Both the position numbers and the translations under genes were made by a program. From the NCBI GenBank assembly GCA_000004985.1, contig GG738861.1: a stretch of DNA of 64,000 nucleotides. One strand, 5' to 3'. Under the pieces are notes generated by a model. That model did not search any database. It saw only the letters and a program-made list of their open reading frames with translations, and was not told the DNA's origin. Positions 28,426-58,748 of the stretch are shown piece after piece (positions within the stretch are counted from its first letter, which is position 1; every line of letters starts with the position of its first letter). This stretch comes from Naegleria gruberi (lineage: Eukaryota).

Positions 28426-28509
28426 GTTCCATTATAATAGCAATTATTTTCTTCAACGGTTGATCCACAGTTTAATTGGTTCAGTGGAACAGAGTATTCT
28501 GGTGTGCTT

Positions 28510-32144: not shown

Positions 32145-32610
32145 TATTCAACAAATAATCCGTTGTGACTTGCTGATTTTCAGAGTGATTTCACATCATG
32201 AAAGCACCAAACTTTCACATCAGCATCTCAACATCATCCGAATAGTAATAACAATCATTGTTTTTTATTAGTGGATTATTATCAGCAAATAGGAATTTAT
32301 TTTTAAAGTTGGAAAAATACCAGTTGGTGAACCATCATATGAGCACTCACCAACCATCATCATTATTGTTTTCCATCAATATAATAATAGTATTTGTGGA
32401 AATTAATTTTTAGTAATGTAATTTTGGTTGAAGAGCCAAAATTTTCACTAAATCCATCATCACTGCTGAATCTACTGAACAAGTTGGAAAACTGTGAATG
32501 TAGTATTGTTCGGAATTGTCAATAGGAGGCAGGAGAACTTTCTCTGATTCTACTACTATTTAAAATAGATAATAAACATCATATTTATTATCAGATTTTC
32601 ATCATGTTCT
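32145..32610 (+). repeat. Dispersed intergenic repeat, copy B
   Basis: See copy A (11620-12180). Same orientation, roughly 85-90 percent identity by eye. Confidence 0.7.
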
Positions 32611-32751
32611 ATTGCCCTATCATCATTGCAATAATATAATTAATGAAAGACTTCCAATACGGCCCAAACCATTTGCACCACCCAAACAATCAAGTTTGCG
32701 ATTGAAAGATTTTCAAGTTTGCGATTGACTCTTCAACACATAAAGTAAAGT

Positions 32752-38632: not shown

Positions 38633-38637
38633 TTAAT

Positions 38638-39092
38638 CTCGAGTGCCGGGAATTGAATTTCCTAATTTGGAAGATGACTTCAACAACCAAATAACAATAA
38701 TAAATTGGGTTATTAAATTAATGTTTATTAAATAGTGACCGTTAGGTCACTGATTGTTAATTAATTATTGATGATGATTTGTTGTTGAACAGATACTAAC
38801 CACCACCGATTGTTGTCATAATATTAAACACAGAGTAATCACCGTGTCGCCAAATTCCTTGATAATTATTCATAACTGTAACTTCTTGATCAAAAGGCAC
38901 TCGAGCAATAAACAATTTGATTTCACACAGCCAAAACTCTCGTTCATACTTTGGGTACCGGGAATGAAATTTCCAAATAAGGAATGACCGATATCATTCA
39001 ACTATTACTAACTCATACTCACACTAACAAAACAAATTGAACCCGGGTCGCCAGAGTGACAGTCTGGAATGCTACCACTATACCACACCCGA
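38638..39092 (-). tRNA. tRNA-Asp(GUC) gene split in the T-loop by a 377-bp insertion
   Basis: 5' part, 39092->39035: TCGGGTGTGGTATAGTGGTAGCATTCCAGACTGTCACTCTGGCGACCCGGGTTCAATT (A box, anticodon loop CTGTCAC). 3' part, 38657->38638: TTCAATTCCCGGCACTCGAG. Joining them at the duplicated TTCAATT gives a 71-nt cloverleaf with a 7-bp acceptor stem (one G-U) and the T stem CCGGG/CCCGG. Confidence 0.85.
38658..39034. mobile_element. Insertion in the T-loop of tRNA-Asp (377 bp, non-coding)
   Basis: Flanked by a direct TTCAATT on both sides. Its ends are homologous to those of the tRNA-Gly insertion. It contains the pseudo-T-arm motif GGAAATTTCATTCCCGGTACCCAA (38952-38980, minus sense) and the hairpin AGTGACC-GTTA-GGTCACT (38734-38751). 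Confidence 0.7.
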
Positions 39093-40166
39093 TTTCATAT
39101 TAAGTGATAAATATTATTGAATATATAGACGTATTTTCAACAATTTTAAATAATTCTACCAACACCAATCCTGTGGTGAGATCCAGTTTCAAACCCTTTT
39201 AAAGGCATCCATTGCCCATCAGTAATTATAAACGAGTTGATCTCACAATAGTTCCTCGGACAATATTCCAATTTCCTTCAACACGTATTCTTCTTCCAAT
39301 CTCTCAAGCCTTTCCATAAATTGCAATACAATAATGATTCAGAAGTATGAATAAATTCAATAGTATCACATTTACATATAGTACATTTAGAACATGATCA
39401 GCACAGCCATTAGTTTCCCAAATTCCACTCTCTGAAAATCTTAAAGATTCAGTACTATCAGTCTCGTGTAGAAATTAACAAGAATACTGTGATAATTCAT
39501 TCACTCACAGAATTCAATTCAGTAGGTGAAAAGACAGGAAAGTTAATTTGATCTACCTTAAAATTGGTTTCCATCTTTGTCTAGAATATCACCTTAATTC
39601 ATTGAACAAGGGAATTTTCTAGAATATACATGTTAACTTTGCAAGAGCTTATTTCAAAAGATCAACTCTTGACACAAGTGGAAAATTAATCAACTCAAAT
39701 TAACAATGCTGTTCAATCACTGATGTCAAATATTAAAGGGTTCATCCCTATCCCCAATTACTATTCTCTTAAAATCACATAACTTTATCCAAAATGATTT
39801 CCAGTGTTTTCCCTTCTTCATTCCAGAATTAACTGAAGAAATATCATCCACTCAACTAATCATCTCAATAATACATGTGTTTATCTCAAATTATAATGTA
39901 AATATATCCACAGCACACAATGTTGCAACTTGAATTGATTGGAAGAGTAGAGTCACTTTGGGATGATTAAATTTGTTGTAGCCTCTCCACTAAATGTTAA
40001 ACCAACAACAACAATAATACCATCCAATGATAATCAACAATTGACGGCCCTCCAACTAGAAAGGGACAAGAAATAACGATGTGATATTACTATCAATATG
40101 TATGTGGTGGGAATTGTGTGAGCAGATGCAAGAATATTGTAGATGAAGGTTTTCTATTTTTTATCA

Positions 40167-41707
40167 AACTTGATGAATTTTTTCCATGTTGAAAATTACA
40201 GTAAGTTGTTAATTGCAATGTTTGCTGATTGTTTGCTCGTAATGTTTGATGATGTGTTGAATGAAAATAATGAAAAGTCATATTGTAAAGTTGTTCTTCT
40301 TCACTTGACTTTCCACATTTAAAAAATGACCTCTAAAATAGTTTTTTAAACTTCAATTTGACTTGCCATCAATCACATCAATCATTCTATCATTAATTTT
40401 TCATTTAAATATTTTTTTAACACACAAATCATCAATTAAAAATCAAAAAAAAACAAATCCATTCAAATTCTATAAAAATGTCATTCTGTGAAGACGTTCA
40501 AGCCCTCGTTGTCGATAACGGTTCTGGTATGTGTAAAGCTGGTTTTGCTGGTGATGATGCTCCAAGAGCTGTCTTCCCTTCAATTATTGGTAGACCAAAG
40601 CAAAAGTCCATTATGGTTGGTATGGGTAATAAGGATGCCTATGTTGGTGATGAAGCTCAATCCAAGAGAGGTATTTTAACTTTGAAGTATCCAATTGAAC
40701 ACGGTATTGTTACCAATTGGGATGATATGGAAAAGATCTGGCATCACACTTTCTACAATGAATTGAGAGTTGCTCCAGAAGAACATCCAGTCTTGTTGAC
40801 TGAAGCTCCTTTGAATCCAAAGGCCAATAGAGAAAAGATGACTCAAATTATGTTTGAAACTTTCTCAGTTCCAGCTATGTACGTCGCTATTCAAGCTGTC
40901 TTGTCCTTGTATGCTTCTGGTAGAACTACTGGTATTGTTTTGGACTCTGGTGATGGTGTTTCCCACACTGTTCCTATCTATGAAGGTTATGCTTTGCCAC
41001 ACGCCATCTTGAGATTGGATTTGGCTGGTCGTGATTTGACTGATTATTTGATGAAGATTTTGATGGAAAGAGGTTATTCATTCAATACTACTGCTGAAAG
41101 AGAAATTGTCAGAGATATTAAGGAAAAGCTCTGTTATATTGCTTTGGATTTCGAAGCTGAAATGAAGGTTGCTGCTGAATCATCATCAGTTGAAAAGTCA
41201 TACGAATTGCCAGATGGTAATGTTATCACTGTTGGTAACGAAAGATTCAGATGTCCAGAAGTCTTGTTCCAACCAAACTTCATTGGTATGGAAGCTGCTG
41301 GTGTTCATGAAACTACTTTCAACTCCATTGGTAAATGTGATATTGACATCAGAAAGGACTTGTACGGTAACGTTGTCTTGTCTGGTGGTACTACTATGTT
41401 CGAAGGTATTGCTGAAAGAATGACCAAGGAATTGACTGCTATGGCTCCTGCTTCAATGAAGATTAAGGTTGTTGCTCCACCTGAAAGAAAGTACTCTGTC
41501 TGGATTGGTGGTTCCATCTTGGCTTCATTGTCCACTTTCCAACAAATGTGGATCACAAAGGAAGAATATGAGGATGCCGGTCCAGGTATTGTTCACAGAA
41601 AGTGTTTCTAAATCTATTGATTTTGAAACAATTCAATTCTCCCAAACAAACAACAAAAACTTGTTTGTAATAAAACTATTATGTAAAATTAAAATCAATC
41701 TGAATAC
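40167..41707. repeat. Right arm of the actin inverted duplication
   Basis: See the left arm (32752-34310). Confidence 0.9.
40478..41611 (+). CDS. Actin (conventional, 377 aa), intronless; protein identical to the 32846-33979 copy
   Basis: The ORF translation is identical residue for residue to the other copy. The nucleotide differences I counted are all third-position and synonymous. Confidence 0.97.
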
Positions 41708-42004
41708 TTTTTGTGTTGCGAAAGAGAAATTGAAATCTTTAACAAACTTCGAATAGGTTCAAAGTTATTATAGACAAAACTTGGAAATGAACTAAATTAA
41801 TCTTCCCTTAAATCAAAAAGATTCTCATTTACTCTCAAGCCCTTAAATAGTCATCATCAACATGTTGACTCTCTCTCGAATATTCGTCATCACCAACAGC
41901 ACGGAAGTTTAGGATGACGCACAAAAAGATATTATTCGTAAATAATGTACTTATGAATAAAATATATTTGGATCTATTCAAAAGGATCTAAAATAGAAAA
42001 AAAA

Positions 42005-44138
42005 ATGAGCAAACAAGAATTGCAGGAAACCATTGAAAAATCAACTAGCAAGACTGCTGCTGATGAGAGCAGTTTTGAAGAGGAAGAACATGAGGATATC
42101 ACTGCAGATGAACAAGTATTGCAAGATTTTTACAAGAAGGAAGCTCAGATTAAACAAGCTACTAAACCAAAGGAAGAAAAGCCGGTTGCTGCTTCTACTT
42201 ATGAAGATCAGGGAGAAGGTGCACATATGATTGAAATGCCATTAGATAAAACTAAGCTTTCCAAGACTGATATTAGGTCATTGCACAAAGATGAAGTAAA
42301 ACAAGCTAGAAAGGAATTGGACAAGCTTCCGAAGCCTCAAACTTTCCCAAATCATGCTGAAATTAGTTTCTTTGGTGCTTCAGGTACTGTTACTGGTAGT
42401 AAGCACATGATTACTTATGGATCTTTGAATGCTTTGATTGATTGCGGAATGTATCAAGGTTTGAAGGAACTTAGGTATGTTTTTTAATTCTTTCATTTGT
42501 TTTAATTAGATTAATTATCAAAGAGAGAGAAACTGGAAATTAATTTCATCATCAAAACCTGTTGAAACAATGTGTGATGCCATCATTATTACTCACTCTC
42601 ACTTGGATCACACTGGTTATCTTCCAAGGTATGTTTTTTATACAATGTTTTGATACAAATGAAAATTAAAACTATCAAAAATCATCAATCGGAATGAATA
42701 ATTTAATCTTCAATCATCATAATAATATCAAAATAGAATGGTTGCTCTTGGATTTACTGGACCAATCTACATGACAGAACAAACATTTAATTTGACCAAA
42801 CTAATCTTGTTGGATTCTGCTCGTTTACAAGAAGAAGATGCTCACTATGCCAATCACAAAGAAACTACTAAACATGAGGTTGCCCTTCCACTCTATTCCG
42901 AAGAAGATGTTCTCAACTGTTTCAAGTTGGTGAGAACTGTCAAGTATGGAGAAAAAATTGTTGTTAAAAGTAGATTGGATGAAGACAAATTCAGCTTTAA
43001 ATACTTTAATGCAGGACACTTGTTGGGATCATCGTTTGTTGAAATTACTCTTGACACAAAGGAAAAGATTATCTTTTCAGGAGATTTGGGAACTTTCCAC
43101 ACCTCCACTCCAATGCAACAACAACCTCAATTACCAATGGGAGCTGATTATGTTATTTGTGAAGCTACTTATGGTGGCAAGTCACACATTGATTTTGCAA
43201 CTGGTAGAGCTGCTGAGGATCAAGATTACATTATTGAAACTAAGGTTAAACCAGCGTTGAAACAAGCTGTTGAACATATTGTGGAAAATGATGGTGTAAT
43301 TCTTATTCCAGCTTTTGCCATTGGTCGTTCTCAAACTATTGCTTATCACTTGTTAAAGATGATGAGAGAGAAGGAAATTCCAACACTTCCTGTCCACATG
43401 AACTCTCCAATGTCAGTTGAAGCTCTTGATTTTTATCAACAATATTTATTGGACGAACATCAAAAGGATGCACACGAAATTTTGAGAGATGTCATTTGCC
43501 ATAATAGTGCTAAGGAATCTAAGGAACTTCACAAAAAGCTCAAGGATGGTTATTCTAAATGTGTCATTATCAGTAGTAGTGGTATGATGACAGGTGGTCG
43601 TTGTTTATTCCACTTTGAAGAATTGGCTCCTCATGAAAAGAACGTTCTCTTATTGAGTGGTTTCCAAGCTGAAGGTACAAGAGGTAGAGACTTGCTTAAT
43701 GGTGTCAGAGATATCAAATTATTGGGCAAGACTGTCAATGTTAAATGCCAAGTCATGCAAGTCCAAGGTTTGTCTGCTCACGGTGATACTGATGATGTTA
43801 TTAAATGGATTGAGGCTGCCAAAAATCCAAAACCAAAGATGGTTTTCGTTGTCCACGGAGAACCAACCTCACTCCGTAGTATGGCTAGAGAAATTTGTGT
43901 TGAATTGGATGTTAATGCTCTCGTTCCAAAGAGAGGTACAACATTCCACATGAGAACTGAACTCTCCTTCAGTCACAGTAGAAGAGCTAGTGTTGTTTCA
44001 ACCAATAACAGTTTACAAGATGTCATTTCAAGCAATATGCCTGATATTCCAAAACTTGGAAAGACCAATATGGTTCACGTGATGTATGCTGGTATTATTT
44101 TAATTGCCTTTATTGCCTTCCTTTTAAGATTCTTTTAA
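42005..44138 (+). CDS. Beta-CASP metallo-beta-lactamase-fold nuclease (bacterial-type), 658 aa, 3 exons, C-terminal TM anchor
   Basis: join(42005..42474, 42524..42628, 42737..44138), with both junctions in phase. Motifs: FFGASGTVTGSKHMI, DCGMYQGLKELR|ERNW, IIITHSHLDHTGYLPR, FVVHGEP. The acidic/Lys-rich N-extension is about 120 aa. The C-terminus is MVHVMYAGIILIAFIAFLLRFF. Confidence 0.8.
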
Positions 44139-44403
44139 ATTATTTGTAAATATATTTGACTTGTAAATTTCATTTGAATAATAATAAATTAAGTTATCCA
44201 CAACAATAAATAGGATGCTTCTCATTATTCTCTCTGCAGAGAGTTTCATCATCCATTGCACAATTCTTACTTTTTGTTCAACGGTAATGATACAAGTCAC
44301 AATCCACGCACTGATGATGACAAACACAAAAAAATTCCCTCTAACCTAATACAACGTGCTTTCATCACAACAAATAGAGAGGAAATTTTCATCATCAAAT
44401 AAT

Positions 44404-45781
44404 ATGGTCTCTAAATTATCATCAACAAGGAGTCTGTCGTCCTTTGCGATTGTACTCACCATTTTGTTCTCCATACTCGTATTGTGTAGTGCCGCAGATG
44501 AGAAGAAAACAGTTACCAGACAAACAAAAACCAACTCTGTCTATGAAACTCATGATGTTATCGATTTAGTGGTTGAAAAGTTGTGGTCTAAATACAACCC
44601 ATCAGAAACTTATAGTTATAAACAATTACCATTTTGCGATGCTAAAGGATCAACAGATACTTCATTGGGTGAAGAACTTACTGGTAGTGCTGATTCTGTC
44701 ATTTCAAATTATGATATTAGATTTGAAGGTTTGTTATTGCTTGTGTTAATTCAATCCCACTTACTATTAATTCTTTTCAACAATTTACTTTGATTGTATT
44801 ATTTTCTTTCTAATAATAATAATACCTAACAACAATAATACAATAATTAACATTAATAATGATAATGATAATAATAATTGATAATGTAAAATTCTAGTCG
44901 ATGTTCCTGCCGAGACTGAACTTTGCTCCAAGTCATTGAACAAGGAAGATTTGTCACTTTTACGTTCCTCAATCAAGGAAGATTATCTCATGCTCATGTA
45001 TTATGATGGTATTCCAATGATTGTTCACATTGGTTATTATGACACTGTTGAACACAAGTATTATCTTTACAATAGCTACAAATTCTCTTTGACTTACAAT
45101 GGTAATCATGTTATTACTGCTGTTGCTCAACCTTCTTCCAAGGTTGATATTTCTTCCGATGATGTTACTCTCATCAAGTTTAAATATTCAGCTGAATGGC
45201 AACAAACAGCCAAACAATACGTTACACGTGTTAATTACTTTATTGGTATGAACTTTAATAGTGATGAATTGGAAATCCAATGGTTCTCAATTATTAACAG
45301 CTTGATCTTTATCCTTGTTTTGACATCATTCTTGACATTTATCATTATTCGTATGCTCAGAAAGGATTATGATGCTATGGATTTGGTAATACACTATATT
45401 GAACTCCATTATTTGTATTTGAGTATGTGGGGTCAATATGGTCACGTTCCATTCCCAATTGTTTTGATGGTTGTCTTGATTTTGATTGCTGTCACTAGTT
45501 GCATTACCATTTCTCTCATTTATTTGACTCTCTCACAAGAAAACCACAATTGGTGGTGGAGAAGTATCAAGTTTGGTGGTACTAGCAGTATTTTCGTTTT
45601 TGGTTATTCCCTCTATTACTACATTATGGAAAGTGGCATGTCAGGCACTCTCCAAACAACCTTCTTTGTTGGTTACAACTTGGTTATTGCCTTTGCTGTT
45701 TTCTTAATGATGAGTACTGTTGGTTTCCTCTCTAGTTTGACCTTTGTCAAGAATATTTATAGTTCTATTAAGTGTGAATAA
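44404..45781 (+). CDS. TM9SF (nonaspanin/EMP70)-like protein, unusually short (402 aa), 2 exons
   Basis: join(44404..44728, 44898..45781). The intron is 169 nt, AT-rich, with GTTTGT...TAG ends. Signal peptide: FAIVLTILFSILVLCSA. N-domain: YSYKQLPFCD...LGEELTGS. C-terminal hallmark: LSQENHNWWWRS...VGFLSSLTFVKNIYSSIKCE. Confidence 0.75.
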
Positions 45782-46008
45782 ATTTGATAATTTTTGTAAA
45801 ATTCAATTAGTTTTATTCATTAATGAACGGAGCAATCTCTGTTGTTGTCAATTAGGTTGATAAGTTTGACCTTGCTCTCATTGTAAAGGAAAAAAAGATT
45901 TGAAAAAGATTGTGGAATTTCCAACATTCATCAGATAACATTCTCCGTACAACCAACTGGTGTTGATGTTTTAATAATCACACGATAAAAAACCAGCACA
46001 CACACAAG

Positions 46009-48755
46009 ATGACATCACGGGGGATCAGCAAATTGTCATCCTCATCATCGTGCTCTTTCCTTTTATTTGTATTGCTATTATCATTGGCATTACTCTTAAT
46101 TAATTGTCATGCTGTTATCGGAGGTGAGTAAAATTATCATCATTATCATATCTTTACCAAATCTAAATATTGTACATTATCAATGACACAATACAATTTC
46201 ATCATCATAATCTTCTAATAGCCACTTACAAATTCCAGAGTGAATTGAAACAAATTGAAAACGGCAAAATTGTTGGTTTAGCTCAAGTGGAATATTCCTT
46301 TGAGAAATCACAACTTTTAATCAAGACTTCCTATTCATCAGAAGAAGAAGATATCGATGAAGAAGAAGCAGATAATTTATTGAAATATCAACTAGTACAT
46401 TCCAATTCATTATATTTAAATTATACCAAGTCGTTGATTGGTATTGAGGAAACCAATGATGAACCATTGAAGAATTATACACTTCCGATTGTAATTGAAT
46501 TGGGAAATTCAATTGATGGTTCAATAATAGTTGTAAATAATACGAATTATTATGTGAAAATTCCAGATTTGTTCAAGGGAAAATATGCTTTGCAAATTGT
46601 GAATCATTCTCGTGGTGGTGTTGCTTTTGGAATTTTACAAAATACTTGTGGATCTTTATCTCCAATTCAGGATTATTCAATTACTAGTTGGAAATTGTGG
46701 TTTGTTTTGGTAACTGTTTTGGGAATGTTGATTGGTTTGATTTTTGACTTGTACAGACCTTATTTTGTAATTTTTATGGCTCTTGTTTTCTTTTTATTGA
46801 GTGGAGTTTTGACATTGAAGGAGGCATTGAATGGGTTCTCAAATGATGGATTGTTGGCTATTGCATTTCTCTTCCCAGTTGTCCAACCTCTTTCTACCAA
46901 TCCAATTTTGTTGAAATTGTCAAGTATCATGTTTGGAAAACCTTGGCTTACTCCAAGATTATCCTATTTGAGAATGTTTCTCCCAATTGCCATCTTGTCC
47001 TCAATTTTGAACAATACTCCAATTGTTGTCTTGTTTTTACCAATTATTAAGGATTGGTGCAGAGCTAATGGGTTATCTCCTTCCAAGTTTTTAATTCCAT
47101 TGAGTTATTTCACTGTTGCTGGTGGTTTGTGTACATTGATTGGTACTAGTACTAATCTGGTGGTTTCAGGATTGATGGTCAATTATGGATATAGATCCTT
47201 CTCATTCTTTGAATTTATTTATATTGGTGGAATTTTACTCGTGGCTACCTTTATTTACATGATGACATTCGGATATAGTTTATTACCTAATAAGAAGGGT
47301 GGTTTATTCAAGTATGCAACTGAGAGGGCTGAAAATTTCCTTTCCCAATTGACTGTTACGGATCCACAATCTCCTCTCTTGAGAAAGAACAAGACTAAAT
47401 TATTGGAACATTTACATTTACCTAAATTGGAAATTATTGAAGTGATTCGTCCACAAGGTCGTTTTGAAGAAAGCGCCGAATCTTTGGATGATAACATGAC
47501 GGAAAAGATTGTTCCAGTTCCAGATGATTATATTGTTCAGTTGGGAGATAAGATTTTCTTCAAGGGAAGTCCAAAGGATATTATGGCCTTGCACTCAGTT
47601 ACTGGACTTTCTGATAAATTTAAGGATACTAGTATTTTCAAAGTGATTGGTACTGAAGAATTGAGAAAATCTTTGGATGAAACTACAGTCAATTTGGATC
47701 AAAATGAAGTCACTGAGGAAAATGCTCAAGAAGAAGGATCTCAACCGCAAGCAGGTGAAAATTCCCTCACTAGATTCCCAGTTCCAAAGAGTCAATTGAA
47801 ACAAGCTTTAGGTCAAGAAGAATCAGAGCCATCCAATGATCCAGAATATTTTGAAATTGTTGTAGGAACCAGTAATCCATGTTGTGGACAGACCTACAGT
47901 GAATTCTCTCAATTCTATCAAGTTGCATTATTCGCAGTGAGACATCGTGAGTCAATTATCAAATCAACCACTGATGCCAGTGACTTTTCTGAACTCAAAG
48001 TTCAAGTTGGTGATACAGTTCTCGTTTTATGCAAGGCAGATTTCTATGAGAAACATAGAGAAAGTCTCGAATTTTTCAGCATTTCTAGATGTAGTGTCAA
48101 TCCAAAAATCGATCACAGACCATTCATTGTGAAATTTAGAGGAAGAGAGTTTAACTTGTGGTGGTGGGAATATTTAATCTTTCCAATCTTTATGGCCATG
48201 ATTATTGGAGCTAGTGCTGGAATTCCAATGGTCATTTGTGCAATGGTTGCATTTGGATTGATGGTCATTTTGAAATTGCTCTCACCAACCAAAGCTATAG
48301 CCTCTGTCGATTGGGAATTAATCATTCTGGTAGCATGTTCTTTAGGTGTTGGTACTGGTATTAGAAATTCAGGCATTTCTGAAGCATTTTCTGAACTCAT
48401 CAATGCCATGAATATTCCGGATATTATTTTGCCAGCCATCATGTTCTTCATTACTCAAACCATCACTCAGGTCATTACCAATAACAGTGCAGCAGCCACA
48501 ACTCTCCCACTCGCTCTAGCATTGGCTCAATCAAGAAATTTAAACTCTCAAATGTTTGGAATTATTGTTGCTGTTGCCTCCTCCAGTGAATTTGCAACTC
48601 CAATCGGATATCAATGCAATTTAATTATTCAAGGACCTGGTGGATATGGATTTTTGGATTATGTAAAGGTGGGTCTTCCTCTCAATATGATTTACTTTGT
48701 GCTGTGTAGTGTGTTTATTCCATTAATTTGGGGATTGAGAGAACCAAACTTTTAA
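46009..48755 (+). CDS. SLC13/ArsB-NhaD-superfamily permease with two central TrkA-C-like segments, 882 aa, 2 exons
   Basis: join(46009..46123, 46222..48755). Exon 1 encodes the signal peptide MTSRGISKLSSSSSCSFLLFVLLLSLALLLINCHAVIG. Two polytopic halves flank soluble segments containing IIEVIRPQGRF...QLGDKIFFKGSPKD and FEIVVG...VQVGDTVLVLCKADF. Confidence 0.7.
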
Positions 48756-48813
48756 TAAATCCTTAAATAATATCGTTAACAAGTTTGAAATTTAATTAAA
48801 TCTCATATTCTCT

Positions 48814-50001
48814 TTAAGGTTGAAAACAATCGAAAAATCGTTTCTTTCTCTGCAATGCTTCACATCCATATTCCTCATAATCCGCCATAGCAACAGCCAT
48901 TTCTGCGAAGGACTCAAGGGAACCAGCAATACTTCCTCCAATCCATGATGAGTAACGTCTCTCAGGAGCTGCCACCACACTTAATCTCAATGATTTTGGT
49001 ATTAATTGTGCCAAATCATGTCTAATTCTGTCTGCCAGTCCAGGAAGGAGCGAAACTCCTCCCGAAATGATAATATTATTGTAGAGACCGTAGCGAGTGT
49101 CAATGTTTGATGCTTGCATGCTGTCTTGAATAATATCAACAATTCCTGGATATTCAGAATTAATTATTTGAGGATTGAAGAGAATTTCATTACATGTGAA
49201 ATGTTCATGAGATAGATTTAACACTTGACCATCAGGTAGCTCATACTGTTGATGTCCTTCACTAGACATTCGACTATTTTCATATTCTCTATCATAATCC
49301 TCTGCAACACGACCAATTTTCCTAATCATTTGATCCACAATTGACCTATTCCCTTCCAAACAAATTCCATGATTTTCACTCAACATTTTAATCATGTAAT
49401 CTGTAACATTGGCTCCTCCAAAATTAATCCTCCTCGTTGTATTATTATCTACAAATCCCCAATAACATGGCACTATCTGAATCACACCCTCTCCCAAGCA
49501 TAAACTCAGTGCCGTCGTTGTTCCACATGCATAGACAGACATGAGAGGTTGTGGAGAGCAGGCAAACGATCCAAATCCATACTTTTCAAAGAATAATTGC
49601 ATTAAATGATTCTTCTGTGAGGAGGGTTGTAAAATTGAATCAATGAATAGTATTGATCTCGATTCATTGTCTGAAATTTCACATTCAGAATTTTGAGTAT
49701 TTTTTGAGAGAATTTCTTGAAAGGTATAATCAAGTAAAATTTCCATCAAATCCCAATTTTTAATAATTCCATTTCGGATGGGATAGTTTAGATTGAGAAT
49801 TCCTTCTCGTTTAATTGCCTGATCACCAATATAACCTGATTTCATAGTGCAATCACTAATCATGATGGGTGAATATTTAGGTGTTCCGATACAGGAAGGA
49901 AAGACACAGCTGGGTGCATCTTCTCCTGCTATGCCTGCATAGAATGTGCTTGAACCGCAATCTAAAACGAATACTTCTGGCCACTCATCACTGAATGACA
50001 T
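48814..50001 (-). CDS. Divergent actin-family (actin-related) protein, 395 aa
   Basis: VFVLDCGSSTFYAGIAGEDAPSCVFPSCIGTPK aligns with the actin N-terminus and VVAAPERRYSSWIGGSIAGSLESF with the actin C-terminus. It is too diverged for me to assign an Arp class. Confidence 0.75.
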   Translation of the reverse strand: MSFSDEWPEVFVLDCGSSTFYAGIAGEDAPSCVFPSCIGTPKYSPIMISDCTMKSGYIGDQAIKREGILNLNYPIRNGIIKNWDLMEILLDYTFQEILSKNTQNSECEISDNESRSILFIDSILQPSSQKNHLMQLFFEKYGFGSFACSPQPLMSVYACGTTTALSLCLGEGVIQIVPCYWGFVDNNTTRRINFGGANVTDYMIKMLSENHGICLEGNRSIVDQMIRKIGRVAEDYDREYENSRMSSEGHQQYELPDGQVLNLSHEHFTCNEILFNPQIINSEYPGIVDIIQDSMQASNIDTRYGLYNNIIISGGVSLLPGLADRIRHDLAQLIPKSLRLSVVAAPERRYSSWIGGSIAGSLESFAEMAVAMADYEEYGCEALQRKKRFFDCFQP

Positions 50002-50093
50002 TTTTTTTAAATTATTCTCTTATTGGAGAGATTACAAAAAAGGTATTACAAAATCAAAATATCAATGTGAATAGTTGTGTTGTTAAAATATAT

Positions 50094-51242
50094 TTACAAT
50101 TTTTGATACAAGACTACTTGAACTAATTCCTTTCCATCATTGGCATTGGAAATTTCAATAACCTTAATTAAAGATGAATAGGAATTGAGCCACAACTTGA
50201 CCTTTTCAGTGAGTGAAAGTAAAGAGCTAATTTTTTGACTCTTTGAAGTATATGGAACTGTGAATGCCTTTGAAGCAAAGAAACCAGATGGAAGACTATT
50301 GACGTATTGATAATCGGAATAGGCAGTAATGCTCAATCTAACACCCAATTTACCGACATGTTCTCTCAATTGTTGATCCTTGAATAAATCGAATGAATAC
50401 ATTGGTTGTTGTTGTTGTTCGGTGCCTGTCTTTAAAAAGTCAGCCAAAGTAAAACATGGTGAATAAGCAATAGCAGTCTTTTGGACATCCAAAAGGTTAA
50501 CCTTGGTCTTTTTCACAATAACATAAATAAAAAAGTTGTGCAATGATTTTTGTGGATCAGAATTGACAAGAGCTTCAATTCTCTCAGTGAAGGTGGATAC
50601 CTTATCTAAGGCAGTAATGTGAACCTTCAAGTCAGGTCTATAAGTGGCACTTCCTCCAATTTCATTCTTGTTAATCTTTTGAGAAATATTTGGAATTGTC
50701 TTGTGTTGGATGATCATTTCAAAAGTAATTCTTGAACTGACTTGACCCAATGCAGTTGGATGAACCAATTGGCAATCCAAAAATCCAGAATCAATAGTAT
50801 ATTCATATAAAGTTTGAGGATTTTCAATATTGCCAATTGGATTATACTTTGGTTGGAGATAGGTATTATTTCTAGTGGTTGAATTTGTGGTTGGTGTGGA
50901 GGAAATGGACATGCTATTTACAAGACTACTCAATGAATCATTAACCGTCTCGATAATACCACGGGATGGTGGTGCCTGATTGTTAGTATTATTATTATTA
51001 TCATTGGTCATAATGGTTGATTCAACTAATGGTTGTTGTTGAGAAGGGGATGATCCGACGACAACTGGTGGTAATTGTTGTTGTTGATACATTGGTTGTT
51101 GTGGCTGTTGTTGGTTATATACAGATCCACTCATGGTAGTATCAATGGATGAATACATCAGACCATTACTTTGATCATGATCATCCAACTTGACGTAGTG
51201 TTCAGTGCTTTGTGGAGGCAAGTTATTATTGTTATTGGACAT
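50094..51242 (-). CDS. Hypothetical protein with an N/Q-rich N-terminus, 382 aa
   Basis: Long ORF in a gene-dense region. No recognisable domain. Confidence 0.6.
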   Translation of the reverse strand: MSNNNNNLPPQSTEHYVKLDDHDQSNGLMYSSIDTTMSGSVYNQQQPQQPMYQQQQLPPVVVGSSPSQQQPLVESTIMTNDNNNNTNNQAPPSRGIIETVNDSLSSLVNSMSISSTPTTNSTTRNNTYLQPKYNPIGNIENPQTLYEYTIDSGFLDCQLVHPTALGQVSSRITFEMIIQHKTIPNISQKINKNEIGGSATYRPDLKVHITALDKVSTFTERIEALVNSDPQKSLHNFFIYVIVKKTKVNLLDVQKTAIAYSPCFTLADFLKTGTEQQQQPMYSFDLFKDQQLREHVGKLGVRLSITAYSDYQYVNSLPSGFFASKAFTVPYTSKSQKISSLLSLTEKVKLWLNSYSSLIKVIEISNANDGKELVQVVLYQKL

Positions 51243-52233
51243 TGAGCGGGAAAGATTTTGAGATATTTTTTAAGAGTTTTGATTTTGAATAGAGATTGGA
51301 AAAGGCTCAAAATAAAGTTTGCTTGAATTTGAAGGGAATTGGAAAGAAGATAAGGATGGAAGGTTTTGTTAAGTGAAAAGGAAGAGGAATCCAAAATGAT
51401 GATAATTGCAAATATGGATTAAGGGTGTTTGACACGTGTAAATTACATATTTTAATATTTCTTAATGATGATGATGAACATTATTGAATTTTTGTGAAAC
51501 TTTCTGATGAATTAAAATTCCTTCAAGCGTATGTATGGACAATGTATTAGAATACCACATCTCTGTAATGTGATTGGAATTGTACAATGAAACAATCAAT
51601 CTATGGAATATTCCAAACCCTACCCAGAATCCTTAATCGTCATACTGTTATTCTAACTGTATTCAGTTTATATAACTACTGGATAGGAAGACTTAATCCT
51701 AACAAACTCAAAGACCTTTATATCTCTCAATGAGCGTGCAACTTGACGATATTGATGGATGTAAAAATCGATTGATAATCAAAAATACTACAGAAATTTC
51801 CTAACTGTGTGCATTCTCACCTGTTGAAAGAGATAAAACAGTGACCTCTGCTTTATATAATTGTTATAAACATCTGTGCCGATCAATCTCTCTTGATGAT
51901 TTTAAGGATAATTCACAGGATTGATGTATAGCAGCACAATATTAGCAGAGTTTACAAAAGTATTAGTGTGAAAGGAATATTCTCCATAGCCACTGTTGTT
52001 GATAATTTCTTCAAATAGTGGTTTTTTGGCCAAAATAAAACATCTTTATATTCTTCTCAAATTATAGATTCATCCAAAAAAGTCAAAAAGACGAAAACGC
52101 GATTTTATTTGGTATCCAAAACTCATTTTTAGGCAATTTTATACTGTACTATATTTGAAAGACTCGCTATGCACTTTGTGTTCTCTCTCCAAACACATAC
52201 AAAGGCTACCCATGAAAAAAAAGCCTAAACATC

Positions 52234-54782
52234 ATGTTGGCGGCAAATTATCAAAACAACAATAGCAAGCTGAACATTTCGAAGGCTTCGTTTTCGTCTT
52301 GTGAACCAAACAAGGAAGAAGTAAGCAGCATGCTTGAACAACAACAGCAACAACAACAATCATTGAATGATTCATTGGGTGTTCTCTTGTTTCATTCCTC
52401 ATCATCAACAGCACCTCCTCCTCATACAAACAATAATTCTTCTTCACCATCCACTCCAACAAGGAGACAACCATCTGCAAGAAAACAACAACAAATTACT
52501 GAATATGAAGATGACATTGTATTCGGAAAGGCTTTGGAAGTGTTGGATCTCAAACAAGGAGTTAACAAGTCAATTGTATCATCTGCTTCTGGTTCTGTTC
52601 ATTCACCTTTTAGTGTTGTTCAACAACAACAACAGAATAAGGAATGTTTTGGAGTAAATACAAGTTCTCAATTGAATGGTGGTGGTGATCCATCAAGGAG
52701 GGCAGAGTTTAATTCACCACTTCCTTCACTCTCTCCAAAGCCATTTACTAAATTAACGAGTCAGCTCTCTTCGTCATCATCCAATTCGTCATCTTCGAAT
52801 GGATCAGAAGAGACGTTATCTTCCAATTCGAATGAGGATGGAAACTGTCTGTATGGCAGTCCAAAGAAACCAAAGACACCCACCAAAAAGACATTTGCAA
52901 CCTATGATGGTTATTTGACATCTCAATCTTTCAATTCTTGCAATTCTTCAATGAATTCAATTAGTACGGGTGGTAGCAGAATTTATGATCCATCAACTTC
53001 ACCATCCATTGTTGAAAGGAGAAGGAGTAGAACACTTGCCTCGTGTGATGCCTATCAAAAGACAATAGATGACTATCTCCATATTCAATGTATTGAGAAT
53101 TATATTCCAACCATTACTAATAATTCAACGAAATGTATACAGGTCACTTTGAAAATTGATTCCTACATTAAGGGATTCGAGAGTGAGGTACTGACTGATT
53201 GTCATCCATTAGAGCACGAATGTGTTTCTCCAACATTAAGCAAGACAAAGAAGAAGGAAAAGCCACAATTTGCGAGTGTGGTTGTTTACAAAAAGAATTG
53301 TAAAAATAAGAAACATTTAGAAACAATGTTCAAGACTATGATTCTTCCACCCAACTCTACCATCAATCTTACTCCAAACAGTTGTCAAGATACAATGTCT
53401 TTGACTGACGACTGTCATAGCCCAGACTGTGTAAAGAATGTAAAAAAGCACTATAGTTACGAGATTATATCCAAAGGATTTGTCAAGGGAAATTCGAGCC
53501 CTTCCCAATCAGATTTATTTATTCCATCACCATCTAGCAATACATACGAACAAGCAGATGGCATGATGACTAGTAGCTCTTCAGAGAGCTCGTCCACCTC
53601 CTCACCAACACAATCATTCTTTGGCAGTAGCCATTCCCTGAATAGAAACCTCTCTGTAAATGAAGAAACAAGACAATGCACCACACCACCTCCAGGTTGG
53701 AATCTAGAAAGATTGAAATTCCTGTCAATAGCAGACCACGTCGATTGACCATTGGAAGTGTTCATTATGCTGGAGAGCCTTACATACCACCTGTCATTCA
53801 TCAAATTATTCTCACCATGAAGCAACGAAGAAATATCAGAGACTTGATTAATATCATTGATAACAATATTAGAAATGATTCATTCTCAATAGAAGGTGAT
53901 TGGAGACAACGATTGGATTTTCTAATCTATTCTCCAGACTCCTTCGTGTTGATTAGAGATCAAGAATTTTTACACATGATTGGAGAAGAATTTGTTGGTT
54001 TTAGCTGTTTCACTTATGCTGCCAAGAAGAGAAGAATTGACATTCTGAAAATGCTCTGTAAGGCACAACCAAGCAAGGTATATGAAAATATTCTCCTTGA
54101 TATTGAGCAATTAGAAAAGATTATAGAACTGAAAGACAATGATGTGATTAAAATCTTGATCACTGCCCTCCAGTTCCACATTGAAAATGAAAGAAATCAA
54201 AATCTCAAATTGGAAGAAGAGGGTCAAAAGAAGAAGAAACCATCCCTTTCAATCTTATTGAAAAGACCACATCACCACCACGAAGATGATGGTATTGAAA
54301 CTGAGGCATTCATTAGAAAATATGTTGCCAGAAATTTCATTTTCATTGACAATTTGAACGCAGTGAAGGTTATTTTGGAAATGAATTTAGTCACAGTCCA
54401 AATGGCAGCAAAAATTGCTGCAACCATGTCCAAGGTTAACACTTTAAGATTCCTTCTCTCTAGAGAATACATCAAGCCATGTGATTACTTTGAGGGAGGT
54501 AATGTACTCCACTGGAGCGTTCTCAATAGAGCTTCAGATGTCATACAACTAGTTTGTGGAATGAGAGCTACCAAGAAGGGCCACCGTGTTAATGTGAAAC
54601 GAGGTAGCTCCAGTCGACTTCAACCATTCAATGGCATGACAGCATTCGAAATTGCCAAGACAGTCTATGATCAAAACAAATTGTCGGATGAGGAAAAACT
54701 GATTTATGAACATTTACAACCAACCAAAGCAGAGCTTATTAAGGGTGTTGTAGAAATTGTTGTACATAAAGTTATTCATTAA
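52234..54782 (+). CDS. Ser/Gln-rich protein with an ankyrin-like C-terminal region (two overlapping frames joined by one short intron)
   Basis: ORFs 52234..53748 and 53676..54782 overlap in different frames. A GTAAAT donor at 53656 with an acceptor at 53711 (56 nt) or 53672 (17 nt) restores one frame. The C-terminal part has weak ankyrin-type repeats (GGNVLHWSVLNRASDVIQLV, NGMTAFEIAK). Confidence 0.55.
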
Positions 54783-55237
54783 TTTATTGTCAATTTAACT
54801 CCAACATGTCCATATTCGCAATTCAAAATTCAAATGAGGTGAATGTGAGCCAAATTGGGGTAACAATTAATATTCATCTTTTTTGATCATTACTTAACTA
54901 TATTTGTACATAATAACCTGGGTTTAGAACTATGAGAATTGCGGAAGAGGTCCTCTTCATTGCTTGTACGATTATGTACAGTAATTGAGTTTGGGTACTG
55001 TCTTGTCCTTAATTAATTGATAAATTTTGCAAACAAATAAAATCGAATTCCAATTCTATTCTGGGTAGCCAAACTCACGCTGCATTACCCCAACTCTAAT
55101 ACTAATTGGTTTAAAAAAAATTAAAAATGACCCATTCTCAAAAAGAATTGGGATTAGAGGTAGTAATATTTGGATGGAAGATAGTAATTAATGTCTGGTT
55201 TTAGTGATAATCAAACAAAATGTAAAAGGAGGCTAAG

Positions 55238-55241
55238 AAAA
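55238..55241 (-). terminator. Pol III terminator (T4) downstream of the tRNA-Gly 3' fragment
   Basis: In minus-strand sense: ...TCGACGCA AACCAGTTACTTTTCTT. Confidence 0.55.
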
Positions 55242-55271
55242 GTAACTGGTTTGCGTCGACCGGGAATTGAA

Positions 55272-56605
55272 ATTTCCTTTTTTGGAATTCATTTAACTTT
55301 TAATTTTATGATGAAATTATGAATTATTTATTTTAATATTATTCATGATGTGAAACATCATGTTGAATTCTGTTCATTATTTTTAATTCATGATGTGAAA
55401 CATCATGTTGAATTATTAACAAATGTTGTTCTTCAATTTTTCATTGAATGTTGTTCTTTCAATGAATGTTGGAATAAGTGTCCAGTATATGATAGAATTG
55501 TTAATACAAGTAAGTTTTCTATTATTTTATATTTATTAATTGACTCACGGGTAATGGAATTTCCTTTTTTGTAAATCATCATGATTGATGATGATTGATG
55601 ATGATTAAATAATAATAATTTATTATTTTATAGATGATGGTACAATTAGATTTGTTAGTACATATCCTAATTGTATTTTAAAGAAAGAAAATTCACCAAC
55701 TAAAATTGAAGATATTATTCGTGAATATGAAGATGTAAAAGTTGTTTTAAATGAATTAGGTAAATCAACAACAAAAATTTATTCATCAGATACAACAAAA
55801 CATATGAATTTCCTAAAAGTTTTATTTATTTATGTAATGGTAATATTAAATATGATCAATCATTAAATATATCACAAGGAATTTATACAATTAAAATTCA
55901 AGATGATGAACATGATCACAAATATTATTATTTATTCGGAAGAGGTTTATTATTTCTATCAATTACATTACAAATGATTCCAACATTTAGTTTAAACAAG
56001 TATTATTATGAAATTGTATTGAATGATTTAAGTAACACATATTTTGATAAGAATGAAATTATTCAATATAAAATTGAAATTTTGCCATCAAATATTATTC
56101 AACAATATTCTAAACGAAAGTTTCTTGTTAGAAAAGATAGTCAAAAGAACTCAAGATTTATTACATATCAACCTGACGCTCAATCACCATCAAAGAAAAC
56201 AAAGAAGAATAACATTATTGAAAGTGATATTGAAGATTTCGATTGCAATATTAAAGATATTGATGATTGGGTATAGGGAAACGGAATTTCCTAATTGGGA
56301 ATGTCATCACACAATAAATTAAATTTATTATTTATTCATTGATGTTCACAAACTGTGAATTAACACATTACATGATGAAACAATTCAAACATTTACTCAA
56401 ACTTTAAACATTAACCATCGGGTAACGGATTTTAATACATGTACTAGTATGTTTATTAATTGGTCGACGCACATAAATTTAAATAAACAAAATTAACAAG
56501 ATTTTAAACAAAATCCTACATAGAGTTGGAGAACGGGAAATGAAATTCCCAAATTGAAATTGAGAAACAACTATTCATTTCACAATAATTCATACTATCA
56601 AAATG
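55272..56605. mobile_element. Compound insertion in the T-loop of tRNA-Gly (1334 bp)
   Basis: Flanked by a direct TTCAATT. The 56277-56605 part is homologous to the whole tRNA-Asp insertion. Extra copies of the pseudo-T-arm motif start at about 55546, 56274, 56416 and 56530. It contains AT-rich open frames on the plus strand. Confidence 0.7.
55764..56276 (+). CDS. Longest open frame inside the tRNA-Gly insertion (171 codons, first ATG at 55974); function unknown
   Basis: Open frame ...LCNGNIKYDQSLNISQGIYTIKIQDDEHDHKYYYLFGRG...KKTKKNNIIESDIEDFDCNIKDIDDWV. A possible upstream exon at 55634-55759 follows a GTAAGT...TAG intron at 55510-55633. No transposase, integrase or RT motif is recognisable. 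Confidence 0.25.
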   Translation: MNNKNLFIRYNKTYEFPKSFIYLCNGNIKYDQSLNISQGIYTIKIQDDEHDHKYYYLFGRGLLFLSITLQMIPTFSLNKYYYEIVLNDLSNTYFDKNEIIQYKIEILPSNIIQQYSKRKFLVRKDSQKNSRFITYQPDAQSPSKKTKKNNIIESDIEDFDCNIKDIDDWV

Positions 56606-56969
56606 AATTGAACCCGGGTCACGGCGATGGCAACGCCGTATTCTACCACTAAACCATCGACGCTTCTTGTTAAGATATTAAGGTTCCTTAATTTAATATA
56701 AGGAATATCCAAAATGCTTAAAGTACAACACAACAAGAATTGAGTATTCGTTTGAACATGCTGTAAAATATTTCAAATTATGCTAAGATCATTTGATGTA
56801 TTTAATGCCATAGGGCATTGAGAGCCATCATTTGAAGATTCAAATAGTATGTTCTTGATTTTATCTGATAAAGCACAAGAATAACATTTCATCCACTAAA
56901 TTTTATAAATGTTGACTGTGTTACATAATAGTATTTAATTATTATTGAAATGAGGATAACAATAAATTA

Positions 56970-58609: not shown

Positions 58610-58748
58610 TTTTTTTAAATAACATTAAAAGGGGTTTCATAAAATCTTTGTAAAGCCAATAAGAAGGTTTAATTGGCAACAAGATCGATAATTGGAAATG
58701 TTACACGGAGTTTCGGCTAGAATAGTTTCGGTGAAACACGCAAAAAAA

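Follow-up and report, generated by a model that had tools for sequence, protein, structure and literature searches.

In Naegleria gruberi NEG-M, an insert of 377 bp in tRNA-Asp(GTC) and another of 1334 bp in tRNA-Gly(GCC) interrupt the gene precisely at its 7-nt T-loop, and TTCAATT is duplicated on either side. Both genes lie on the minus strand of a 64-kb stretch of DNA (hereafter, the window). Our preferred reading, which is tentative, is that these inserts are non-autonomous, site- and orientation-specific elements that target the palindromic T-arm of tRNA genes by a Dada-like, target-specific DNA transposition.

Interrupted tRNA genes and anatomy of the inserts

ARAGORN and Rfam searches found no intact tRNA in the window. 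Deletion of 38658-39034 together with one TTCAATT restores a perfect tRNA-Asp(GTC) cloverleaf, and deletion of 55272-56605 with one TTCAATT restores a perfect tRNA-Gly(GCC) cloverleaf (Table 1). Since the tRNA genes reconstitute precisely, both inserts are regarded as insertions. The site and orientation are identical in both of the tRNA genes in the window, and the T-arm DNA of the target is the palindrome CCGGG-TTCAATT-CCCGG. The B box and the T-arm are destroyed and a T4 run directly follows the T-loop; therefore, both host tRNA genes are most likely dead. With about 924 tDNAs, N. gruberi offers the multicopy situation that such elements exploit.

Table 1. Features of the two interrupted tRNA genes, with positions in the window
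Feature	Position	Strand	Remark
tRNA-Asp(GTC) 5' part (nt 1-60)	39035..39092	-	reconstruction gives a perfect cloverleaf
Left TTCAATT copy, Asp locus	39035-39041	-	final 7 nt of tRNA-Asp 5' part
Asp element, 377 bp	38658..39034	-	homologous end to end with Gly-1
Module B, internal	38948-38990	-	nhmmer E=3e-8; aligned with module G of Gly-1
Asp 10-mer CTCGAGTGCC	38896..38905	-	Asp element offset 129-138
Module A, real right junction of Asp insert	38636-38678	-	right end, TTCAATT, tRNA-Asp 3' part
Right TTCAATT copy, Asp locus	38651-38657	-	
tRNA-Asp 3' part CCCGG-CACTCGA-G	38638-38650	-	
tRNA-Gly(GCC) 5' part	56606..56663	-	reconstruction gives a perfect cloverleaf
Left TTCAATT copy, Gly locus	56606-56612	-	final 7 nt of tRNA-Gly 5' part
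Gly-1 element, 320 bp	56286..56605	-	full homologue of Asp element
Module G, internal	56524-56566	-	profile E<1e-6; homologous to module B
Gly 10-mer TGCGTCGACC	56462..56471	-	Gly-1 element offset 134-143
Motif F (AAAATCCGTTACCCGATGG), weak module-family member	56417..56435	-	profile E=6.4
Module E, right end of Gly-1	56265-56307	-	profile; 100% identical in L006
Second unit of Gly insert, about 1014 bp	55272..56285	-	without left end
Decayed orphan gene, antisense to tRNA	55321..56276	+	only gene within Gly insert
Module D	55538-55580	-	profile E<1e-6; within second Gly unit
Module C, real right junction of Gly insert	55251-55293	-	profile E<1e-6
Right TTCAATT copy, Gly locus	55265-55271	-	
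tRNA-Gly 3' part CCCGG-TCGACGC-A	55252-55264	-	

Along its entire length and in unchanged orientation, the Asp insert is homologous to Gly-1, the initial 320 bp of the Gly insert. With the tRNA parts excluded, the local score of the Asp insert against these 320 nt gives z=5.5, the left 100 nt of the two inserts give z=6.9, and the last 80 nt give z=5.1 against Gly-1, while the reverse-complement control gives z=-0.7. The homology claimed in the preliminary description is thus significant on proper alignment, and its left-end consensus YRTTTTGWTAGTRTGA and right end ..AWWAGGAAAT are borne out by both inserts. Membership of the two inserts in one family is supported by this alignment. In the tRNA sense, the Asp element begins with TGTTTTGTTAGTGTGA... 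and ends in ...CCAAATTAGGAAAT, and Gly-1 begins with CATTTTGATAGTATGA... and ends in ...CCCAATTAGGAAAT, which corresponds to module E. No terminal inverted repeats were found in the elements, and comparison of left with right ends (z about 1) gives no long terminal repeats.

The second Gly unit contains module D, terminates in the right-end module C and is dissimilar to the Asp element and Gly-1 outside the modules. For the Gly insert, the better interpretation is a single complete element of 320 bp followed by this second unit with its unrelated body. A collinear, rearranged relative, 88-95% identical, is present on the metagenome contig L006. Since this contig is independent, the sequence is real and repeated. 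The available sample comprises two element copies and one fragment. Both tRNA halves and both repeats are free of mutations despite an element likeness of only about 65-74%, which suggests two diverged lineages, each active recently.

Reiterated modules and coding content

The motif GGAAATTYCRTTNCCCG has 12 matches at three or fewer mismatches, against 1.07 expected. A profile built on 43 nt, in the order right end, T-loop-like 7-mer and CCCG, detects six minus-strand copies at E<1e-6. They are confined to the two inserts, and apart from them the 64-kb window contains nothing significant. These six uphold most of the motif positions given earlier; the copy near 56416 reaches only E=6.4, and a supposed fossil copy at 55075-55100 is indistinguishable from chance (profile E=16). 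The 13-nt core of motif F, ATCGGGTAACGGA, is 100% conserved in L006.

The modules differ in what follows the right end. In module C, the right end ...CCAAAAAAGGAAAT is followed by TTCAATT and the tRNA-Gly 3' part. Module E consists of the Gly-1 right end, TCCGTTT, CCC and TATACCCAA, with no tRNA 3' half, and marks the junction of Gly-1 with the second unit. Right-end-like sequence is followed by TTCATT, CCCGG and TACCCAA in module B, and by TTCATTT, CCCG and TTCTCCA in module G. The real 3' ends have a matching partner, which is lacking for every pseudo-acceptor heptamer. Nested insertions or carried-over 3' halves had been suggested as the origin of the modules. This origin is not established. 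Both elements share, as a conserved and homologous component, the module at offset about 45-85, which represents no separate insertion event.

Pfam searches of all ORFs of at least 150 aa found no integrase, transposase, recombinase or reverse transcriptase (RT), in agreement with the preliminary description, which had seen no integrase, transposase or RT. A tblastn search with two Dada transposases gave no matches. The orphan gene in the Gly insert has two exons (55321-55509 and 55634-56276) and a GTAAGT..TATAG intron (55510-55633) that holds module D. It has a frameshift near 55800-55860 and no ATG, and its annotation, NAEGRDRAFT_66102, covers the last 100 codons only. Its product has no Pfam match, no homologue in our search apart from a 44-aa ORF on L006, and an AlphaFold pLDDT of 32.

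The host-matched 10-mer and the mode of insertion

The strongest clue is a host-matched 10-mer, which is first pointed out in this analysis. In the Asp element, CTCGAGTGCC exactly matches, in reverse complement, the final 10 nt of tRNA-Asp, which comprise G64 G65, the acceptor strand on the 3' side and discriminator G73; in Gly-1, TGCGTCGACC does so for the final 10 nt of tRNA-Gly (GG-TCGACGC-A). Counted from the element left end, the offsets are 129 (Asp) and 134 (Gly). Beyond the tRNA end, each 10-mer is found once in the 64 kb, in its own insert, and cross-controls are negative. The chance of any match is P 0.007 and 0.018, and the joint chance, including the positional coincidence, is about 1e-7. 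L006 carries GGTCGACACA at the place of the Gly 10-mer. The 10-mer is preceded by TG, not TGG, which leaves CCA unmatched; the preceding G could pair with C74. No described eukaryotic transposon is known to carry, in this form, a 10-base complement to the end of its own host tRNA gene, and the most interesting interpretation is possible base pairing, in the role of guide or primer site, with the 3' end of the tRNA.

From the observed insertions, 7-bp repeat, homology, modules, 10-mer and absence of an enzyme, we infer the following route. An enzyme encoded elsewhere in the genome would recognise the T-arm and open both strands where stem and loop meet, behind G53 and behind T60. Joining of the element between the opened borders would duplicate the whole 7-nt T-loop on each side, as in a target-specific DNA transposition by a putatively Dada-like enzyme. 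The right end and the tRNA 3' half form a GGAA-N5-7-TTCC palindromic module, a diverged copy of which is a fixed internal part of the element, and the modules may be binding sites of the enzyme. The 10-mer may base-pair with the host tRNA's DNA or RNA sequence and tie each lineage to one tRNA species. The Gly locus would be a tandem composite of a complete element and a gene-bearing second unit, joined at a module.

Several observations weigh against the Dada-type reading. A transposase of any kind is absent from the window, the 10-mer sits 129-134 nt from the opposite end, and a 7-bp repeat between 5-bp inverted arms fits a tyrosine recombinase overlap equally. A priori, the most typical setting for a sequence complementary to the 3' end of a tRNA is the primer-binding site of a retroelement.

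An origin as retroelements is unlikely in our view. The 10-mer would then be a primer-binding site for the host tRNA or a fold-back site of the element's own read-through transcript, given that the 3' half of the host tRNA would stand at the end of that transcript. The element would integrate either through target-primed reverse transcription or through recombination of its cDNA at the T-loop, where RTs stall at m1A58. An exact 10-nt complement about 130 nt from the element end occupies the usual place of a primer-binding site, and the G before it could extend the pairing to C74. The purine-rich right end of modules C and D (AAAAAAGGAAA) resembles a polypurine tract, and the second Gly unit, which has no left end, recalls 5'-truncated copies. 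The 10-mer matches perfectly although the elements diverge by about 30% elsewhere, as expected if a retroelement site is recopied from the tRNA in each cycle. However, no RT, integrase or endonuclease ORF was found, long terminal repeats and a poly(A) or simple-repeat tail are absent, CCA is left unmatched by TG, and both full copies share a defined left end. The model also leaves unexplained why the primer tRNA is of the same species as the target gene.

Site-specific integration of circular elements by a tyrosine-recombinase-type enzyme is improbable to the same degree. TTCAATT would be the 7-bp overlap region, and the T-stem strands would be the inverted core arms. This geometry is compatible with the target sequence, which is a perfect 5-7-5 inverted repeat with exchange points exactly at the arm/spacer borders. 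The modules would be hybrid attachment sites from successive integrations and the Gly locus a cassette-like array, each unit boundary of which reads right end, 7-mer, CCCG. The absence of terminal inverted repeats also agrees, as does the presence of degenerate tyrosine-recombinase retroelement remnants in N. gruberi. However, the window has no recombinase gene, and the deduced attachment site GGAAAT-TTCAATT-CATTTTG has weak inverted symmetry. An attR-type module conserved within both elements is unexpected, and the model gives the 10-mer no role.

It is very improbable that the loci are split tRNA genes, or genes with giant non-canonical introns in the T-loop, whose inserts are removed from the RNA to leave functional tRNAs; this reading is disfavoured. 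Non-canonical tRNA introns, some in the T-loop, are known in archaea and red algae, exact rejoining would be possible via the 7-nt repeat, and both tRNA halves are intact. However, T4 runs start 2-3 nt into each insert and reappear throughout, so RNA polymerase III should stop. Moreover, the insert ends lack conserved pairing for a bulge-helix-bulge, the inserts have no structure signal and no Rfam intron or ribozyme match, and one of them contains an antisense gene remnant. Least probable is that no mobile element is involved and that the pattern reflects accidental similarity, a misassembly or a regulatory external B-box. Only two loci were examined and short matches are common in such AT-rich sequence, but accidental similarity and misassembly are refuted for practical purposes by the motif, module, 10-mer and insert-homology statistics, the exact reconstitution of both tRNAs and the same internal arrangement on L006. 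The absence of the motif outside the inserts in the 64-kb window, which has no intact tRNA gene, speaks against an external B-box.

Comparison with known systems

A literature search found no described family that targets the tRNA T-loop. For the preferred reading of target-specific DNA transposition, Dada DNA transposons are the nearest known in behaviour, with a different target site and anatomy. Dada elements insert at one position and in one orientation in multicopy small-RNA genes, including tRNA-Gly and tRNA-Asp genes, with precedents for sites within tRNA and snRNA genes (PMC3706591, PMC8869645). They share with the Naegleria elements a target duplication of 6-7 bp, the absence of terminal inverted repeats, and short element sequences that correspond to inverted stretches of the target gene. 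Non-autonomous derivatives by internal deletion, tandem and one-sided insertions, and copies whose two flanks stem from different genes are further likenesses. However, the Naegleria elements hit the T-loop/B box (nt 54-60), whereas Dada targets nt 8-13 or the anticodon region (PMC3706591, PMC8869645). The match is 10 nt, about 130 nt from the far end, whereas Dada has 7-9 nt repeats at an equal, short distance on each side of the duplication (PMC3706591, PMC8869645). In Naegleria, the matched sequence varies with the host tRNA between two related elements, internal copies of the right end and target half are present, and a Dada transposase is undetectable in the window. There are no reports of Dada from Heterolobosea.

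In LTR retrotransposons and TRIMs, too, a short stretch at 100-200 nt from one end is complementary to the 3' end of a cellular tRNA and a purine-rich tract lies at the other end, and a small non-coding element of about 350 bp is also comparable. Unlike these, the Naegleria elements have no LTRs and no TGG complement to CCA, the duplication is 7 bp instead of 4-6 bp, and the element sits inside the gene of the very tRNA that is matched. The tRNA-gene integrases of prokaryotic integrative elements and the eukaryotic Cryptons resemble the inserts in the use of a palindromic tRNA arm as recombination site, a short identical segment flanking the insert, and the absence of terminal inverted repeats. 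However, these elements bring a tRNA 3' part and restore the gene, whereas the Naegleria inserts destroy it, carry no recombinase and reside in a eukaryotic host.

Guide-directed elements (group II intron EBS/IBS, IS110 bridge RNA and IS200/IS605 guides) also contain an internal sequence that is complementary to DNA beside the insertion site and changes with the target. In contrast, the Naegleria inserts have no ribozyme or structured RNA signal, their pairing is robust in only one segment, at 4-13 nt on one side of the site, and the corresponding enzymes are all absent here. The dictyostelid and yeast elements TRE5/TRE3, DGLT-A, Skipper-2 and Ty3 use the RNA polymerase III machinery to insert upstream or downstream of tRNA genes, which stay intact (PMC5006619). 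As in these systems, a compact protist genome would offer its multicopy tRNA genes as safe landing sites, but the Naegleria elements land within the gene, at a fixed nucleotide.

Two tRNA genes split at the T-loop

The window is AT-rich (33% GC) and carries eukaryotic genes, including those for teneurin-type EGF/REJ proteins, actins and an RWP-RK protein. NAEGRDRAFT_79278 of Naegleria gruberi matches the ORF at 56970-58682 with 100% identity, which identifies the sequence as N. gruberi NEG-M. About 924 tDNAs are reported for the N. gruberi genome (PMC2888827). In the window, Rfam detects no tRNA at gathering score, the 5' part of tRNA-Gly reaching only 21 bits, and ARAGORN makes a single doubtful tRNA-Gly call over the whole stretch. 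Two tRNA genes are present, tRNA-Asp(GTC) and tRNA-Gly(GCC), and both are split (2/2 in 64 kb). Removal of the insert and one TTCAATT restores a 71-nt tRNA with a perfect cloverleaf at both loci. The inserts occupy the 7-nt T-loop (nt 54-60) at an identical site and in identical orientation in the tRNA sense (n=2). The entire loop is duplicated, and TTCAATT flanks each insert on both sides as a 7-bp repeat. The insertion points are the stem/loop borders of the palindromic T-arm. Both tRNA genes of the window are most likely dead.

Positions of the split tRNA genes, the inserts and the features within them
Feature	Position	Strand	Description
tRNA-Asp(GTC)	5' part ends at 39035; resumes 377 bp on	minus	5' part ends GGG-TTCAATT; 3' part TTCAATT-CCCGG-CACTCGA-G
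tRNA-Gly(GCC)	5' part ends at 56606; resumes 1334 bp on	minus	3' part TTCAATT-CCCGG-TCGACGC-A
Asp element	38658-39034		377-bp insert
Gly insert	55272-56605		1334 bp
Gly-1	56286-56605		first 320 bp of Gly insert
Second unit	55272-56285		remainder of Gly insert
Module A	38636-38678	minus	true right junction
Module B	38948-38990	minus	offset ~45-85 of Asp element; column homologous to G
Module C	55251-55293	minus	true right junction
Module D	55538-55580	minus	within second unit
Module E	56265-56307	minus	Gly-1 right end
Motif F	56417-56435
Module G	56524-56566	minus	offset ~45-85 of Gly-1; column homologous to B
10-mer, Asp element	38896-38905
10-mer, Gly-1	56462-56471
Orphan gene remnant	55321-56276	plus	in second unit; exon 55321-55509 joins in frame to 55634 onward

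The split tRNA-Asp locus lies within about 5.9 kb enclosed by the arms of a 1.56-kb inverted repeat (32747-34306 and 40164-41710; 96.5% identity). Both arms contain an actin gene, and the 377-aa products are identical. Other repeats are found elsewhere in the window. The teneurin-type EGF/REJ cluster contains a recent 0.9-kb tandem duplication (14989-15868 vs 17747-18626; 96%) and extensive internal EGF-repeat arrays (28277-31155; 71-76%). Dispersed repeats pair 11607-12009 with 32139-32545 (409 bp, 86% identity) and 1660-1861 with 6280-6481 (202 bp, 99% identity). Positions 1-2000 show a strong strand asymmetry (GC skew -0.50, AT skew +0.28) unlike the remainder of the window. The closest named relatives of the Beta-CASP/RMMBL protein encoded at 42738-44138 are from Naegleria fowleri, at 80%, and from Willaertia magna, at 68%. 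The next best are bacterial MBL-fold RNA-specificity proteins from Acidobacteriota and others (35-40% identity), which suggests that in Heterolobosea the gene is of bacterial origin.

Shared ends, modules and coding content of the inserts

The two inserts are homologous. With tRNA parts excluded, alignment of the Asp insert with Gly-1 gives z=5.5, the left 100 nt give z=6.9 and the last 80 nt z=5.1, against z=-0.7 for the reverse-complement control. The global alignment spans the two elements end to end. The insert-to-insert similarity asserted in the preliminary description is thus significant once computed, and the left end YRTTTTGWTAGTRTGA and right end ..AWWAGGAAAT are found as written there. 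Terminal inverted repeats were not found in the inserts. Outside the modules, the other 1014 bp of the Gly insert resemble neither the Asp element nor Gly-1, and this second unit is without a left end. We infer that at the Gly locus a complete element stands in tandem with a second unit, the two being joined at a module. The tRNA halves are intact while the two lineages differ by about 30%, which suggests that both lineages were active recently, with the enzyme supplied in trans.

The motif that recurs in the inserts can be described as a 43-nt module consisting of the right end, a T-loop-like 7-mer, CCCG and a heptamer. A 17-nt pattern has 12 matches in the window at ≤3 mismatches (1.07 expected), and the 43-nt profile finds six copies at E<1e-6, all on the minus strand and all within the two inserts, with no other significant match in the 64 kb. 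Every module forms an imperfect palindrome, GGAA-N5-7-TTCC, made by the right end and T59-C62 of the T-arm. The reiteration noted in the preliminary description therefore stands for these six insert-confined copies. Of its other two sites, the copy near 56416 scores weakly (E=6.4), and the opposite-orientation fossil at 55075-55100 does no better than chance (E=16). The preliminary description had also seen in the pattern a sign of repeated or nested insertion, or of carried-over target 3' halves. Since modules B and G fall in homologous columns of both elements, they are a built-in part of the element and not independent events. In the internal modules (B, D, E, F and G), the pseudo-acceptor heptamers lack any complementary partner in the vicinity. 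A 10-mer match to a pseudo-acceptor at 47946 sits in a transporter gene and was rejected as chance.

A Pfam search of window ORFs of at least 150 aa found no transposase, integrase, recombinase, endonuclease or reverse-transcriptase domain, in line with the earlier impression that no integrase, transposase or RT is visible. Two Dada transposases (Dada-tY_PMar and Dada-2_PMar, from the supplement of PMC3706591) gave no tblastn match to the window at E≤10. The remnant of an orphan gene lies in the Gly insert's second unit. The intron of this gene (GTAAGT..TATAG) contains module D, and its stop codon falls in the flank of module E. The gene has a frameshift near 55800-55860 and no ATG, and its annotated part comprises the last 100 codons only (NAEGRDRAFT_66102). 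A first model with an ATG at 55462 was discarded as out of frame; the in-frame exon crosses the same intron without an ATG. The product has no Pfam domain and no homologue among 5.8 billion proteins in a word-index search. A full HMMER search of 1.84 billion representatives returned only the product itself and a 44-aa ORF, and its AlphaFold model is unusable (pLDDT 32). Two perfect 29-nt direct repeats, 45 nt apart and each with the hairpin CATGATGTGAAACATCATG, are found at 55341-55414. This places them immediately within the right end of the Gly insert and either in the first exon of this gene or upstream of it.

The 44-aa ORF is carried by L006, a 559-bp metagenome contig (ENA ERZ929261) that is collinear with 55451-56520 at 88-95% identity. 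Compared with the window, about 600 bp from the body of the ORF have been lost in L006, and the module E region has been duplicated there in inverted orientation (107 bp). Module E is identical in the two sequences, as is the core of motif F. The contig stops short of any tRNA. It shows that the arrangement is real and occurs in a second genome or locus. The related Naegleria contig L002 (88% identity) and contigs L003 and L007 do not extend to a tRNA locus either. The left-end pattern had only two chance bacterial matches in JGI metagenomes, and two viral-contig scans gave chance matches only.

A 10-mer matched to the host tRNA

Each element contains a 10-nt sequence matched to the tRNA gene that it splits. 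In the Asp element, CTCGAGTGCC at offset 129-138 matches exactly, in reverse complement, the 3'-terminal 10 nt of tRNA-Asp, which comprise G64 and G65, the acceptor strand on the 3' side and the discriminator. In Gly-1, TGCGTCGACC at offset 134-143 stands in the same exact relation to these 10 positions of tRNA-Gly. The cross-comparisons (Asp element with tRNA-Gly, Gly-1 with tRNA-Asp) are negative, and each tRNA 3' end recurs exactly once in 64 kb, inside its own insert. The 10-mer lies 129-134 nt from the left end, and the target copy 3 nt from the right repeat. It is the complement of the 3' strand and not a copy of the 5' acceptor strand, because an A of the element takes the place of G4 of tRNA-Asp, a base in a G-U pair, and because three extra positions fit only the 3'-end reading. 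By Markov resampling, the probability of any 10-nt match by chance is 0.007 (Asp) and 0.018 (Gly); with the added requirement of shared tRNA coordinates and a shared offset, the joint chance is about 1e-7. The corresponding position in L006 reads GGTCGACACA, with one difference from the window copy. Its inverted duplication (388-494) is inserted 6 nt from this 10-mer. As a result, one strand there has a right-end module 22 nt from a tRNA-Gly-like 3' end. A second host-matched segment (tRNA nt 41-52, sense, offset ~180; Asp 10/11, Gly 9/11) was set aside because it is not in homologous alignment columns.

The invaded tRNA species might be chosen by base pairing and not by a protein, the 10-mer acting as a guide, primer-binding or self-priming site that would pair with the host tRNA gene, or its transcript, at the 3' end. 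We regard this as a tentative and rather unlikely proposal. Under such pairing, the tRNA 3' half, transcribed together with the element, would serve the element as a functional end of its own. If true, it would constitute a new class of nucleic-acid-programmed eukaryotic mobile element that could be retargeted by a 10-nt change.

Mechanism, meaning and known systems

Target-specific DNA transposition, in which an enzyme acting in trans would insert the element into the T-arm, is the most likely mechanism by analogy with known elements, although we put it somewhat short of an even chance. Integration by a tyrosine recombinase with TTCAATT as the overlap region appears improbable. The target CCGGG-TTCAATT-CCCGG is perfect for an overlap with inverted arms, and the palindrome and the cassette-like boundaries fit as well; however, the site deduced for the element, GGAAAT-TTCAATT-CATTTTG, has only weak symmetry, the 10-mer is given no use, and no tyrosine-recombinase gene was found in the window. 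We rank a retroelement origin, with the 10-mer as a primer-binding or self-priming site, at the same low level. It best explains the 10-mer and its perfect preservation, but CCA is unmatched, there is no RT in the window, and there is no ready reason why the primer tRNA should also be the target tRNA. LTR identity was rejected, as the left 66 nt and last 80 nt are not significantly alike (z=1.0 for Asp, 0.7 for Gly-1). Giant tRNA introns removed from RNA are very improbable, since T4 runs occur from insert nt 3 onward and neither a conserved end pairing (bulge-helix-bulge) nor a structure signal is seen. Chance or artefact is the least probable explanation and can be neglected.

The elements strike the most conserved part of the tRNA gene, the T-loop and B box. 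In the searchable literature, we came across neither T-loop-specific elements nor, in Naegleria, elements of any kind that disrupt tRNA genes, nor a report of the T-loop/B box as the target of a eukaryotic transposon. To our knowledge, few eukaryotic elements insert at a single exact nucleotide of a multicopy gene. Such elements are of practical interest as models of targeted insertion, and the host-matched 10-mer makes it testable whether a eukaryotic mobile element chooses its target by base pairing. The two split tRNA genes escape standard tRNA finders, so that many disrupted ones may accompany the predicted tDNAs of this genome.

The elements would be a variant within a known kind, the target-specific elements of multicopy RNA genes. 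They differ from site-specific non-LTR retrotransposons (R2-like, Tx1-like) in having no RT/endonuclease domain and no 3' tail, and the unit without a left end in the Gly insert only weakly recalls 5'-truncated copies. Unlike LTR retrotransposons and TRIMs, they have no long terminal direct repeats. Compared with an LTR/TRIM primer-binding site, the 10-mer shows 10/10 complementarity to nt 64-73 plus G for C74, and it is preceded by TG, not TGG, in the window copies and in L006. Crypton, DIRS-like and integrase-type elements differ by their tyrosine recombinase, and non-canonical tRNA introns by end pairing. IS110-type bridge-RNA elements and group II introns share one target-complementary segment, a second, sense-oriented one being unconvincing here; in contrast to them, the left 205 nt show no fold signal (z=+0.6 and -0.4), and no Rfam match, DEDD/serine recombinase or intron-encoded RT is seen. 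The closest known behaviour appears to be that of the Dada DNA transposons (Kojima & Jurka 2013, PMC3706591; Kojima 2022, PMC8869645). Membership is not claimed. The target site is another one, as is the layout of the matched sequence, which lies 129-134 nt from the left end, against 3 nt between target copy and right repeat; the window also has no detected Dada DDE transposase. Dada elements have short sequences that match the target gene in inverted orientation, which the 10-mer resembles apart from this layout. As with Dada, the target duplication is 6-7 bp (7 bp here) without terminal inverted repeats, insertion is at one site and in one orientation inside multicopy small-RNA (tRNA, snRNA) genes (n=2 here), and tandem insertions and one-sided flanks occur.
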